Shown: one piece after another, positions 45,755-51,700 of the stretch
Layout of the letters: each line of letters opens with the position of its first letter
How positions within the stretch are numbered: position 1 is the stretch's first letter
Assembly: GCF_048403405.1 (NCBI RefSeq)
Contig: NZ_CP183129.1
Direction: 5' to 3' (one strand)
DNA length: 64,000 bases
DNA from: Escherichia coli
GTDB lineage: Bacteria; Pseudomonadota; Gammaproteobacteria; Enterobacterales; Enterobacteriaceae
Notes under the pieces: generated by a model
The model's input: the letters and a program-made list of their open reading frames with translations, nothing else
What the model was told of the DNA's origin: nothing
The model's database searches: none
Translations under genes and position numbers: made by a program

Positions 45755-45768
45755 TTGATAACGATCAA
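45755..45768. promoter_or_regulatory. Consensus FNR site upstream of ydhY
   Basis: TTGATAACGATCAA is a perfect TTGAT-N4-ATCAA FNR box in the AT-rich region about 200 bp upstream of the ydhY ATG; the ydhYVWXUT operon is known to be FNR-activated. Confidence 0.7.
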
Positions 45769-45969
45769 TGTTAAGGGCTCAGAATAATCACATTATTTTT
45801 TCTCCTAACCATAAAGGATTAGTTTATCGGCGTTAAATCTTTTCTCATACACTATCGGGTTAGGGAAAATATCTGGTGTTGGGGACAGAGTCAGCAGCGT
45901 ATTAGTTGAATGCTTAATATCAGGCTGCTGAATTGTCAGCACTGTGTTTGCGAAGAGGATGCGAAATAA

Positions 45970-46596
45970 ATGAACCCGGTTGATCGTCCACTATTAGATA
46001 TTGGCTTAACGCGATTAGAATTCTTGCGTATATCAGGAAAAGGCCTTGCTGGTCTAACAATTGCCCCTGCGTTACTGTCACTTTTGGGTTGCAAACAGGA
46101 AGATATTGATAGCGGCACAGTAGGGTTGATAAATACACCCAAAGGGGTGCTGGTGACCCAGCGAGCGCGATGCACGGGTTGCCACCGCTGTGAAATCTCT
46201 TGTACCAACTTCAACGATGGCTCAGTAGGGACATTCTTCTCCCGTATCAAAATCCATCGCAATTATTTCTTTGGCGACAACGGGGTTGGCTCTGGCGGCG
46301 GCCTGTATGGCGATCTCAACTATACCGCGGACACCTGCCGACAATGCAAAGAGCCGCAATGCATGAACGTCTGCCCGATTGGTGCGATTACCTGGCAGCA
46401 GAAAGAAGGCTGTATTACCGTCGATCATAAACGCTGTATTGGCTGTAGCGCCTGTACTACGGCATGCCCGTGGATGATGGCCACCGTAAATACCGAAAGT
46501 AAAAAATCCTCGAAATGTGTGTTATGCGGTGAATGCGCAAACGCCTGCCCAACAGGGGCGTTAAAAATTATCGAGTGGAAAGATATTACTGTGTGA
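45970..46596 (+). CDS. ydhY: 4Fe-4S ferredoxin-like protein, four Cys clusters
   Basis: 208 aa with an N-terminal leader containing RISGKGLAGLTIAPALLSLLGC and repeated Cx2Cx2Cx3C-type motifs. Confidence 0.88.
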   Translation: MNPVDRPLLDIGLTRLEFLRISGKGLAGLTIAPALLSLLGCKQEDIDSGTVGLINTPKGVLVTQRARCTGCHRCEISCTNFNDGSVGTFFSRIKIHRNYFFGDNGVGSGGGLYGDLNYTADTCRQCKEPQCMNVCPIGAITWQQKEGCITVDHKRCIGCSACTTACPWMMATVNTESKKSSKCVLCGECANACPTGALKIIEWKDITV

Positions 46597-46616
46597 ATCT
46601 TGCAAAGGAAAAAATC

Positions 46617-49433: not shown

Positions 49434-50102
49434 ATGTCCTTCACTCGACGCAAATTTGTTCTGGGGATGGGAACAGTAATCTTTTTTACTGGTTCTGCGT
49501 CTTCTCTGTTAGCGAACACGAGGCAAGAAAAGGAAGTTCGGTATGCCATGATTCATGACGAGTCACGGTGCAATGGCTGTAATATTTGCGCCCGCGCATG
49601 CCGTAAAACTAACCACGTCCCCGCTCAGGGAAGCCGTTTATCGATAGCACACATTCCAGTCACCGATAACGACAACGAAACGCAGTATCACTATTTTCGC
49701 CAGTCATGCCAGCACTGTGAAGATGCTCCTTGCATCGACGTATGCCCGACAGGGGCGTCGTGGCGTGATGAGCAGGGGATCGTGCGGGTAGAAAAATCGC
49801 AGTGCATCGGCTGCAGTTATTGCATTGGCGCTTGTCCTTACCAGGTTCGCTACCTTAACCCTGTCACTAAAGTGGCAGATAAATGTGATTTCTGCGCTGA
49901 GTCCCGACTGGCAAAAGGCTTTCCGCCCATTTGCGTCAGCGCCTGTCCGGAACACGCATTGATCTTTGGTCGCGAAGATAGCCCAGAAATTCAAGCGTGG
50001 TTGCAAGAAAATAAATATTATCAATATCAGCTACCTGGTGCCGGGAAACCGCATCTGTATCGCCGATTCGGTCAACATTTGATTAAAAAGGAAAATGTAT
50101 GA
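49434..50102 (+). CDS. ydhX: Tat-signal 4Fe-4S ferredoxin-like protein
   Basis: 222 aa from the internal ATG; twin-arginine leader MSFTRRKFVLGMGTVIFFTGSASSLLA; several CxxCxxCxxxCP motifs. Confidence 0.88.
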   Translation: MSFTRRKFVLGMGTVIFFTGSASSLLANTRQEKEVRYAMIHDESRCNGCNICARACRKTNHVPAQGSRLSIAHIPVTDNDNETQYHYFRQSCQHCEDAPCIDVCPTGASWRDEQGIVRVEKSQCIGCSYCIGACPYQVRYLNPVTKVADKCDFCAESRLAKGFPPICVSACPEHALIFGREDSPEIQAWLQENKYYQYQLPGAGKPHLYRRFGQHLIKKENV

Positions 50103-50884
50103 ACCCGTCGCAACATGCTGAACAGTTTCAGAGCCAGTTGGCGAACTATGTGCCACAATTCACTCCCGAATTTTGGCCGGTGTGGTTGATCATTGCCGGA
50201 CTATTGCTGGTTGGGATGTGGTTGGTGCTGGGGCTGCATGCCTTGCTTCGTGCTCGTGGCGTGAAGAAATCAGCCACCGATCATGGTGAGAAGATTTATC
50301 TTTACAGCAAAGCGGTCAGATTATGGCACTGGTCGAATGCGTTACTCTTTGTATTGTTGTTGGCAAGTGGGCTGATAAATCACTTTGCGCTGGTGGGCGC
50401 AACTGCGGTTAAAAGTCTGGTTGCGTTGCATGAAGTTTGCGGATTTTTGTTACTGGCATGCTGGCTCGGCTTTGTTCTGATCAATGCCGTTGGGGGTAAT
50501 GGTCACCACTATCGCATTCGTCGTCAGGGTTGGCTGGAGCGAGCGGCAAAACAAACGCGATTTTATTTGTTTGGCATTATGCAGGGGGAAGAACATCCTT
50601 TCCCGGCAACAACCCAGTCTAAATTTAATCCCTTACAGCAGGTCGCCTATGTTGGTGTCATGTATGGATTGCTGCCGTTGTTACTATTGACGGGGCTGCT
50701 GTGTCTCTATCCGCAAGCCGTGGGAGATGTGTTTCCTGGCGTAAGATACTGGTTATTGCAGGCGCATTTTGCTCTGGCATTTATAAGCCTCTTTTTTATC
50801 TTCGGTCATCTTTATCTTTGCACCACGGGGCGTACGCCACACGAAACCTTTAAAAGCATGGTCGATGGCTATCACCGGCACTAA
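50099..50884 (+). CDS. ydhU: PhsC-like cytochrome b membrane anchor
   Basis: 261 aa, several hydrophobic helices with conserved His; ATGA overlap with the ydhX stop. Confidence 0.85.
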   Translation: MNPSQHAEQFQSQLANYVPQFTPEFWPVWLIIAGLLLVGMWLVLGLHALLRARGVKKSATDHGEKIYLYSKAVRLWHWSNALLFVLLLASGLINHFALVGATAVKSLVALHEVCGFLLLACWLGFVLINAVGGNGHHYRIRRQGWLERAAKQTRFYLFGIMQGEEHPFPATTQSKFNPLQQVAYVGVMYGLLPLLLLTGLLCLYPQAVGDVFPGVRYWLLQAHFALAFISLFFIFGHLYLCTTGRTPHETFKSMVDGYHRH

Positions 50885-50887
50885 CGA

Positions 50888-51700
50888 ATGATCATTACAC
50901 GAGCAGACCTGCGAGAATGGCGTATCGGAGCGGTGATGTATCGCTGGTTCCTGCGCCATTTCCCACGCGGCGGTAGTTATGCCGATATTCATCATGCACT
51001 GATTGAGGAAGGATATACGGACTGGGCGGAGAGTCTGGTTGAGTATGCGTGGAAAAAATGGCTGGCGGATGAAAACTTCGCGCATCAGGAAGTTTCTTCT
51101 ATGCAAAAACTGGCCACAGATCCCGGAGAGAGAGCATTTTGCAGTCAGTTTGCCCGTAGCGACGATCATGCTCGCATCGGCTGTTGTGAGGATAATGCCA
51201 GAATCGCAACCGCTGGGTATGCCGCGCAAATTGCCAGTATGGGTTATAGCGTGCGGATTGGAAGTGTCGGCTTTAACAGTCACATTGGCAGCTCCGGTGA
51301 ACGCGCACGGGTTGCTGTAACCGGTAATTCTTCGCGGATAAGCAGCGCTGGAGATAGTAGTCGGATTGCGAATACCGGAATGCGAGTACGCGTTTGTACA
51401 TTGGGTGAACGGTGTCATGTCGCCAGTAATGGTGACCTGGTGCAAATCGCCAGCTTTGGCGCAAACGCCAGAATTGCCAACAGCGGCGACAATGTACACA
51501 TCATTGCCAGCGGTGAAAATTCAACGGTAGTGAGCACGGGCGTGGTCGACTCAATTATTCTCGGGCCAGGAGGAAGCGCCGCACTGGCATATCATGACGG
51601 CGAAAGAGTTCGCTTCGCCGTCGCCATTGAAGGTGAAAACAATATTCGAGCCGGAGTCCGCTATCGTCTTAATGAACAGCATCAGTTTGTTGAGTGCTGA
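50888..51700 (+). CDS. ydhT: Uncharacterized protein YdhT (internally repetitive)
   Basis: 270 aa; the central region carries tandem ~10-11-residue repeats of the type RI(A/G)S.G.N. Confidence 0.8.
   Translation: MIITRADLREWRIGAVMYRWFLRHFPRGGSYADIHHALIEEGYTDWAESLVEYAWKKWLADENFAHQEVSSMQKLATDPGERAFCSQFARSDDHARIGCCEDNARIATAGYAAQIASMGYSVRIGSVGFNSHIGSSGERARVAVTGNSSRISSAGDSSRIANTGMRVRVCTLGERCHVASNGDLVQIASFGANARIANSGDNVHIIASGENSTVVSTGVVDSIILGPGGSAALAYHDGERVRFAVAIEGENNIRAGVRYRLNEQHQFVEC

Follow-up and report, generated by a model that had tools for sequence, protein, structure and literature searches.

The ydhYVWXUT operon of Escherichia coli K-12 (b1674–b1669; Partridge et al. 2008; Reschke et al. 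2019) is the closest described counterpart of the operon analysed here, which occupies positions 45755–51700 of a 64,000-nt stretch of E. coli DNA (the window); the locus, the genes, the FNR site and the annotation are the same, and nothing differs. As shown in published work on its catalytic subunit, purified YdhV binds a molybdenum bis-molybdopterin cofactor (Mo-bis-MPT), rejects bis-MGD (the bis-molybdopterin guanine dinucleotide form) and prefers Mo over W; its [4Fe–4S] cluster was lost during purification and no substrate was found. Putumbaka et al. 2026 (June) classified YdhV and YdhY as the large (L) and small (S) subunits of the 'Class V' membrane-associated WORs, clade 41, with no activity assigned to Class V, and described an L–S–W operon in Cetobacterium somerae that is flanked by FdhD and tat genes. 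The L subunit of this enzyme, CsWOR41, was inactive on 46 aldehydes, and YdhV or L subunits made without their partners have so far yielded only inactive preparations. The E. coli operon shares with CsWOR41 the L/S/W core and a predicted membrane-associated or extracytoplasmic location, but it has four genes in addition to L and S, of which X, U and T are added to the shared core, and it lacks linked FdhD and tat genes; its S subunit carries a leader with a single arginine, the twin-arginine signal being found on YdhX instead, and Mo is preferred, whereas CsWOR41 prefers W.

Three further enzyme systems are comparable in part. BamB of class II benzoyl-CoA reductase has the same AOR-family fold, a protein Cys ligand a few residues past a C-x2-C-x3-C motif and no AOR second shell; however, it is cytoplasmic, contains W and belongs to the electron-bifurcating BamBCDEFGHI complex, whereas YdhV has a loop that is six residues longer, prefers Mo and would be wired to a quinol module. 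PhsABC and FdnGHI show the same three-tier layout of a catalytic unit exported by twin-arginine translocation (Tat), a 4 × [4Fe–4S] ferredoxin and a dihaem cytochrome b anchor, but their catalytic subunits are bis-MGD enzymes of the dimethyl sulfoxide reductase family, whereas YdhV belongs to the AOR family and carries bis-MPT without nucleotides; the ydh system also has two ferredoxins in series, and E. coli has no phsAB. The aldehyde and formaldehyde oxidoreductases of Pyrococcus furiosus (AOR, 1AOR; FOR, 1B25) share both Pfam domains with YdhV, the N-terminal domain being alignable at E values of 1e-52 to 1e-72, but they are soluble, cytoplasmic W enzymes with no protein ligand to the metal. 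The ydh operon, its control by FNR and NarL/NarP, its Mo-bis-MPT cofactor and its placement in clade 41 have thus all been published, and the original prediction, which had flagged the operon from the letters of the window, adds nothing new to them. New in this study are the Y–V–W core, the fold and charge of YdhW, the fold of YdhT, a switch in the leader of YdhY and a conserved 7-2-7 site in the promoter. The operon encodes a respiratory-type enzyme complex that is among the last in E. coli for which no reaction is known, and the clade of YdhV has been reported to lead all WOR types in abundance in catalogues of human-gut genomes, mostly through E. coli.

The six genes of the operon are as follows.

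45970–46596, + strand: ydhY, a 4 × [4Fe–4S] ferredoxin and small (S) subunit with a Tat-derived, single-Arg leader
46617–48719, + strand: ydhV, the catalytic (L) subunit, a Mo-bis-MPT enzyme of the AOR/WOR family
48732–49370, + strand: ydhW, a very acidic protein, predicted to be cytoplasmic, with a disordered tail and two winged-helix modules; a conserved partner of YdhV
49434–50102, + strand: ydhX, a 4 × [4Fe–4S] ferredoxin resembling NrfC, DsrO and TtrB, with predicted Tat export
50099–50884, + strand: ydhU (annotated phsC), a cytochrome b membrane anchor with a quinol/quinone site by similarity
50888–51700, + strand: ydhT, predicted to be cytoplasmic, with a helical N-domain, a β-solenoid and a C-terminal cap; found only in Enterobacterales

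All six genes lie on the + strand and together span 45970–51700, separated in the order Y–V–W–X–U–T by 20, 12, 63, −4 and 3 nt. A hairpin scan with the fumD-type stem as the yardstick found no convincing terminator or hairpin between them, and the literature treats them as one FNR-dependent operon, so that the tight, co-directional and co-transcribed arrangement claimed by the original prediction holds. Its assignments of YdhV to the aldehyde:ferredoxin oxidoreductase family and of YdhU to the PhsC-like anchors are borne out by the domain matches given below, the pterin cofactor it expected on YdhV is the Mo-bis-MPT of the purified protein, and its view of the substrate, and of what YdhW and YdhT do, as unclear agrees with the literature to June 2026.

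For the comparison across genomes, 80 loci from named genomes were gathered with the YdhV alignment, from 99% down to 48% identity, and their open reading frames (ORFs) were labelled by phmmer/hmmsearch. Y–V–W was found in every lineage whose contig is long enough. Among the 80 loci, X–U–T is limited to Enterobacterales (Escherichia, Citrobacter, Leminorella, Limnobaculum, Budvicia, Proteus, Serratia/Symbiopectobacterium and Brenneria), and the alphaproteobacterium Telmatospirillum has X–U without T. The genes flanking the core in Clostridia, Halanaerobiales, Limnochordia, Tissierellia, Spirochaetes and the actinomycete Varibaculum are FdhD-like, tatA and tatC instead, and the L–S–W, FdhD and Tat arrangement described for C. 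somerae is reproduced in 20–30 other non-proteobacterial genomes. Unbiased clustering of the ORFs from 33 non-enteric loci recovered V in all 33, Y and W in 29 each, TatC in 22 and an FdhD-like protein in 21, with TatA also frequent; rarer families, each in at most nine of the 33, were a MoeA–PBP fusion, MoaA, MoaC–MOSC, MobB and a ModA/TupA-type ABC transporter. The neighbours of these 33 loci gave no clue to the substrate, being only molybdenum-cofactor and transport genes, and the neighbourhood as a whole appears to concern the production and export of the enzyme. Judged from gene content, Y–V–W is the universal core, and X–U–T is an Enterobacterales add-on that appears to have replaced the linked FdhD-like, tatA and tatC genes. 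The minimal unit would accordingly be Y–V–W, and attempts at purification should include YdhW and the ferredoxin partner.

A published observation on the C. somerae enzyme touches on the linked FdhD-like genes. The L subunit was co-purified with the host cysteine desulfurase IscS, which its authors called incidental (PMC13328260). IscS is the sulfur donor for FdhD (Thome et al. 2012, in the account given by PMC13328260), and since an FdhD-like gene is linked in 21 of the 33 non-enteric loci, the co-purification may reflect real sulfuration of the cofactor.

The distribution of X–U is mirrored in the leader of YdhY. The E. coli leader, L-T-R-L-E-F-L-R-I-S-G-K-G-L-A-G-L-T-I-A-P-A-L-L-S-L-L-G-C41, has the n-region and hydrophobic (h-) region of a Tat signal and a single Arg. 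The second Arg is missing in all 43 proteobacterial YdhY sequences (R-L, or R-Q in Telmatospirillum), whereas all 31 non-proteobacterial homologues carry (S/T/N)-R-R-x-F-(L/M). The leader of E. coli YdhY therefore lacks the twin arginine of Tat substrates and appears to be only Tat-derived, and the switch from R-R to R-L, as read from the alignments, goes with the acquisition of YdhX. Across nine genera, residues 12–41 of the leader are 86% identical, compared with 81% for the Fe–S domain, and the altered leader is therefore not decaying; the closest leaders that bear both arginines are nearly the same except for the Arg. A lipobox-like L-(L/F)-G-C ends the leader in 43 of 43 proteobacterial and 22 of 31 twin-arginine sequences, although in L-L-G-C41 the residue at position −2 (L or F) is atypical for a lipobox and that at +2 is Lys. 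The h-region of single-Arg leaders is more hydrophobic than that of twin-arginine leaders (1.98 versus 1.74, maximum 13-residue Kyte–Doolittle mean; Mann–Whitney p = 0.0003), a difference that is suggestive only, as the single-Arg leaders all belong to one clade and are not phylogenetically independent, a limitation that counts against the case for export made below. Huang and Palmer found that substitutions inactivating the twin arginine can be suppressed by a more hydrophobic h-region; lipoprotein leaders with a twin arginine form a known class, and co-export of a partner by hitchhiking through Tat is well established. The leader of YdhY has probably been kept for anchoring, auxiliary targeting or chaperone binding.

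In contrast to YdhY, YdhX begins with MSFTRRKFV, which contains a canonical T-R-R-K-F motif, and the leader MSFTRRKFVLGMGTVIFFTGSASSLLA is kept in 46 of 46 proteobacterial loci as (S/T)-R-R-(K/Q)-F. With this motif, a hydrophobic h-region and a cofactor-carrying passenger, YdhX is a predicted Tat substrate, and a published prediction of E. coli Tat substrates lists YdhX and omits YdhY. Both ferredoxins have four complete Cys groups, corresponding to 4 × [4Fe–4S] each and eight clusters altogether. The original prediction had placed Tat-type leaders on both proteins; the clusters and the YdhX leader stand, the YdhY leader does not, and the periplasm-facing position that it drew from the architecture now depends on the signal of YdhX. 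What emerges is a concrete question of export, with a single-Arg leader on YdhY alongside a twin-arginine leader on YdhX. A published ydhX mutant showed no virulence defect in a model of extraintestinal pathogenic E. coli.

YdhU matches Ni_hydr_CYTB (PF01292) at an E value of 5.8e-31 and the PhsC equivalog PRK15006 at 458 bits (cut-off 204). Its sequence contains five hydrophobic spans, and at least five histidines are invariant (His47, 77, 95, 111 and 166), with His223, 237 and 259 present in 45 of 46 sequences. It thus has the features of a Ni_hydr_CYTB/PhsC-type cytochrome b, for which haem ligation is predicted. The RefSeq product name, phsC, 'thiosulfate reductase cytochrome B subunit', was assigned through the equivalog model and looks over-annotated by similarity, because no phsA or phsB accompanies ydhU in the operon. 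Transposon mutants of ydhU have been predicted in published work to be fitter under ten chemical stresses.

YdhV consists of AFOR_N (PF02730, E = 2.6e-67) and AFOR_C (PF01314, E = 4.5e-48), matches NCBIfam PRK09849 at 1371 bits (cut-off 868) and is the only molybdoenzyme of the AOR/WOR family in E. coli. The [4Fe–4S] ligands, C307-x2-C310-x3-C314 and C558, do not vary among 14 homologues whose identity reaches down to 48%, and neither does the triplet N334-T335-C336 at the position of the metal ligand. In a comparison made with a profile of homologues, BamB (4Z3W) is the only solved relative that can be aligned without interruption from the N-domain to beyond the C-x2-C-x3-C motif, with BamB Cys322 as the end of the alignment, and YdhV Cys336 comes after a six-residue insertion relative to that end. 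For the AOR and FOR structures the confident part of the alignment stops at around residue 230, and P. furiosus AOR has no Cys in the loop that matches the Cys336 loop. According to a 2025 review, the metal is ligated by Cys336, YdhV is without the second-shell residues of aldehyde-oxidizing AORs (Glu/His) and this combination is shared only by YdhV and BamB. With a Cys shortly after the cluster motif, YdhV by its sequence belongs to the BamB-like subgroup, and with the Cys336 ligand and the second shell reported absent it is not an aldehyde-oxidizing AOR sensu stricto. Since the ligand is of the BamB type, the AOR second shell is missing and a relative was inactive on 46 aldehydes, screening of aldehydes, including by phenotype arrays, is unlikely to be rewarding; the substrate of YdhV is probably not an aldehyde.

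The third member of the core, YdhW, had been described together with YdhT as being without recognizable motifs. This is correct for the Pfam release searched, in which YdhW has no match even at an E value of 10 and YdhT has none, but newer entries exist for both (PF27264, YdhW_C, and PF27195, respectively). The YdhW family comprises 515 clusters at 50% identity, 279 of them with E values of 1e-10 or below. A model built from a 71-sequence alignment (predicted local distance difference test score, pLDDT, 92.8) shows a disordered N-terminal tail (residues 1–35), which is also acidic and variable, followed by two helix–helix–helix–hairpin–helix modules (38–118 and 122–210), that is, a predicted tandem winged helix. 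The best whole-chain fold matches are protein-binding tandem winged helices, ESCRT-II Vps22, ScpB and TFIIIC. YdhW has an isoelectric point (pI) of 4.41 and a net charge of −20; in the family as a whole, pI has a median of 4.66 and is below 6 for 97% of members, and this strong acidity favours protein binding over DNA binding. R131, Y137, D173 and S188 are invariant, cofactor-binding Cys/His motifs are absent and no signal peptide was found. The longer members of the family (300–490 aa) gave no informative fused domain except for one sub-threshold BLUF match. Distant members that were sampled independently again have AOR-family genes as neighbours, along with tat genes or genes for FdhD-like, trigger-factor C-domain or NifU proteins. 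A chaperone of the TorD/DmsD/NarJ type was considered for YdhW and rejected on fold, as there is a tandem winged helix and no match to PF02613.

Two of the distant loci are unusual. In one (L085, 6001–8343) a YdhW-family protein of 491 residues, which has a long, unclassified N-terminal extension, is encoded ahead of a NifU_N Fe–S scaffold gene, and an AOR-family gene of 800 residues lies about 4 kb away on the opposite strand. In the other (L088, 1–7972; GCA_022539405.1) there are two tandem V–W sets, each followed by a small trigger-factor C-terminal-domain protein, and then FdhD-like and MobA-like genes; the trigger-factor C-domain protein may be an additional accessory factor in some lineages.

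YdhT is repetitive, as had been noted, and the repetition is at the protein level: there are about 14 nine-residue repeats with an invariant Gly at each ninth residue, and no tandem repeat was found in the DNA of ydhT. The model (pLDDT 90.2) consists of a five-helix N-domain (1–77), a β-solenoid (87–216) with one short strand per nine-residue repeat, and a conserved C-terminal cap; no signal peptide was found. The homologues form 47 clusters, all of them enteric. YdhT co-occurs with X–U rather than with the Y–V–W core, and its role is therefore more likely to be tied to the quinol module. Citrobacter sp. NCU1 has two copies of the operon on separate contigs (L025 and L044), one with 86% YdhV identity and without ydhT, the other with 92% YdhV identity and complete; the former seems to be a naturally occurring 'minus-T' variant.

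Gene content, cofactor, FNR site, cluster motifs, distribution and predicted folds are grounded in sequence or in the literature, and from these we infer the topology, the electron path, its direction and the roles of YdhW and YdhT. The overall architecture is likely to be a wire of YdhU, YdhX, YdhY and YdhV that is linked to the quinone pool at the periplasmic face and is made under anaerobic conditions when nitrate and nitrite are absent. Electrons would pass between the quinone pool and the haems of YdhU, then YdhX, YdhY, the [4Fe–4S] cluster of YdhV and finally Mo, in one direction or the other. The cofactor-loaded Y–V unit would be exported mainly by hitchhiking on the twin-arginine signal of YdhX, because the proteobacterial YdhY leader has lost its second Arg, and the unusually hydrophobic leader of YdhY possibly aids this export. 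In the cytoplasm, YdhW would act as an assembly or escort factor for Y–V and not as a DNA binder. Several points weigh against this scheme. The localization, interactions and activity of every subunit in the native complex are at the stage of prediction, and the sequence cannot settle the direction of electron flow: by analogy, the regulation pattern resembles that of low-priority terminal reductases, and the low potentials of the cofactor family would equally suit a dehydrogenase. PhsC-type anchors support low-potential reductions assisted by the proton motive force, and thiosulfate reductase is reportedly a precedent for this. Single-Arg leaders normally fail in Tat targeting, so that Y–V could remain cytoplasmic, and a lipidated Cys41 followed by Lys at +2 would be expected to direct YdhY to the outer membrane in E. 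coli, at odds with an electron wire in the inner membrane. Recombinant YdhV was still loaded with Mo-bis-MPT without co-overexpressed YdhW, YdhW could equally be a co-exported structural subunit, and comparison of the YdhT fold gave no functional assignment.

A split arrangement, in which Y–V (with W and T) stays in the cytoplasm, only YdhX is exported and YdhU moves electrons across the membrane between X and Y–V, would account directly for the missing twin arginine in the 43 proteobacterial YdhY leaders, for the omission of YdhY from the Tat prediction that includes YdhX and for the lack of signal peptides on YdhW and YdhT; cytoplasmic YdhV homologues without membrane partners have also been predicted in some gut Actinobacteria in the literature. 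We nevertheless consider it unlikely. The h-region and lipobox of YdhY are under strong constraint (the 86% identity given above), which fits a leader that still engages the membrane or export machinery, the nearest twin-arginine leaders are almost identical except for the Arg, YdhX would be left in the periplasm with no catalytic partner, and hitchhiking has precedent. We also know of no FdnI/PhsC-type cytochrome b that docks a cytoplasmic ferredoxin. Slightly less likely still is a periplasmic aldehyde:quinone oxidoreductase, in which YdhV would oxidize aldehydes for detoxification or energy gain, with menaquinone receiving the electrons by way of Y, X and U. Membership of YdhV in the AOR family and its RefSeq name, 'aldehyde ferredoxin oxidoreductase', point in this direction, as do the usually very low potential of W/Mo-bis-MPT centres, from which donation to quinone would be thermodynamically easy, and the common operation of FdnI/HyaC-type cytochromes b as quinone reducers. 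YdhV, however, has the BamB-like protein Cys ligand and is without the second-shell residues of aldehyde oxidizers; the inactivity of the CsWOR41 L subunit on 46 aldehydes and the failure to find a substrate for YdhV argue in the same sense, but weakly, since both preparations were incomplete enzymes.

For YdhW, a cytoplasmic assembly or escort factor for Y–V is favoured over a structural subunit, at somewhat less than an even chance. The working analogy is with TorD/DmsD/NarJ, NapD, HyaE and FdhE, which are likewise small, have no signal peptide and are encoded beside a Tat-exported cofactor enzyme, although YdhW has no sequence or fold relationship to them. That YdhW is a third structural subunit, co-exported with Y–V, is less probable: ydhW directly follows ydhV in almost every lineage and appears to be translationally coupled to it (12-nt gap), and the 2026 classification paper gives W as a possible subunit ('LSW'), but in five loci (L055, L061, L065, L085 and L088) the gene stands with tatA or with genes for FdhD-like, trigger-factor C-domain or NifU proteins, apart from V or upstream of Y, and the protein offers no cofactor-binding Cys/His motifs and has a disordered, acidic and variable N-tail. 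A winged-helix transcription factor controlling the operon was considered as well, since the fold is of the winged helix–turn–helix type, and is very improbable in view of the charge of −20, the pI of 4.4, the 97% of the family below pI 6 and the protein-binding nature of the best fold matches (Vps22, ScpB, TFIIIC); FNR and NarL/NarP, moreover, already account for the regulation. The preferred assembly role may be extended, more speculatively and with the balance of probability against it, to a new maturation or escort class founded by YdhW and obligatory for all clade-41 enzymes; on this view, Tat targeting in Proteobacteria would have moved from YdhY to the newly acquired YdhX, and the leader of YdhY would now serve for YdhW binding, for anchoring or as an auxiliary. 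If true, this would explain why YdhV-type subunits without partners came out inactive, and co-expression of Y, V and W, with or without X, would be a recipe for active enzyme and for discovery of the substrate.

The control region upstream of ydhY contains the following features.

45305–45514: fumD (ydhZ), upstream neighbour gene, RefSeq annotation
45519–45547, + strand: strong intrinsic terminator of fumD, a 12-bp stem with a T-run after it; it bounds the ydh control region on the 5′ side
45755–45768: FNR site TTGATAACGATCAA, a class II activation site with published centre −42.5
45791–45796, + strand: candidate −10 element CATTAT, weak, placed by applying the published −42.5 spacing
~45804, + strand: putative transcription start, from the published −42.5 spacing applied to the sequence
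45804–45969, + strand: putative 5′ untranslated region (UTR) of ~166 nt, derived from the putative start site
45806–45821: candidate NarL/NarP-type inverted 7-2-7 pair, TAACCAT-AA-AGGATTA, centre ~+10
45926–45941, + strand: hairpin TGCTGAATTGTCAGCA, a perfect 6-bp stem in the 5′ UTR, ~29 nt 5′ of the ydhY start codon

The perfect FNR box of the original prediction was recovered as the sole perfect match to TTGAT-N4-ATCAA within the window. The promoter fits the FNR class II pattern, with this motif near −41.5/−42.5; the position and the binding in vivo are taken from Myers et al. 2013, who, citing Partridge et al., reported the operon as FNR-bound by chromatin immunoprecipitation and FNR-activated, with the site at −42.5. 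Escherichia, Citrobacter, Leminorella and Limnobaculum have all kept the box upstream of ydhY. Control of the ydh operon by NarL/NarP is attributed to Partridge et al. (2008) in papers that cite it, and σS holoenzyme has been published to be preferred at the ydhY promoter in vitro. There is no exact NarL heptamer (TACYYMT) in the ydhY promoter, and the 7-2-7 pair is recovered only if each heptamer is allowed one mismatch to the NarL/NarP consensus, which both of them contain; this relaxed pattern has a single occurrence in the 64 kb, where 0.04 are expected. The offset from the FNR box to the pair is constant at 51–53 bp in the same four genera, and the pair is nearer to the consensus in Leminorella and Limnobaculum. 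Positions 45806–45821 are thus a likely site of repression by nitrate and nitrite, at which NarL/NarP would bind over the start site.

The remaining observations on the control region are minor. The UTR and the operon gave no Rfam match even at E = 1; the hairpin TGCTGAATTGTCAGCA could influence translation or be the target of a small RNA. The intergenic region between fumD and ydhY (45515–45969, 455 bp) has a GC content of 33%, compared with 50% for the operon and for the window, and is far longer than the FNR and NarL sites need; it could bind nucleoid proteins or hold more regulatory sites.

The region 45000–52500 is 100% identical to several sequenced E. coli chromosomes, and 5,425 of the 5,426 complete genomes of E. 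coli carry ydhYVWXUT, 5,404 of them with at least 80% coverage, which makes it a core-genome operon of the species. Two of the start sites deserve mention. The longest ORF of ydhV begins 84 nt upstream of the annotated start (46533–46616) and overlaps ydhY, but the annotated start at 46617 is backed by a conserved M-x-x-G-W in the alignments of homologues; the longest ORF of ydhX (from 49383) would put 17 extra residues before the true Tat leader. Further upstream, ynhH (44757–44951, 64 aa, minus strand) lies directly upstream of pykF (43345–44757) and has no relation to the ydh operon. Downstream, ydhT and the convergent ydhS, which encodes an FAD-NAD(P)-binding protein, end 11 bp apart (51700–51712) and no terminator was found between them. 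The nearest terminator-like hairpin on the + strand past ydhT (51906–51923) is located inside ydhS, and the ydhT and ydhS transcripts therefore probably overlap.

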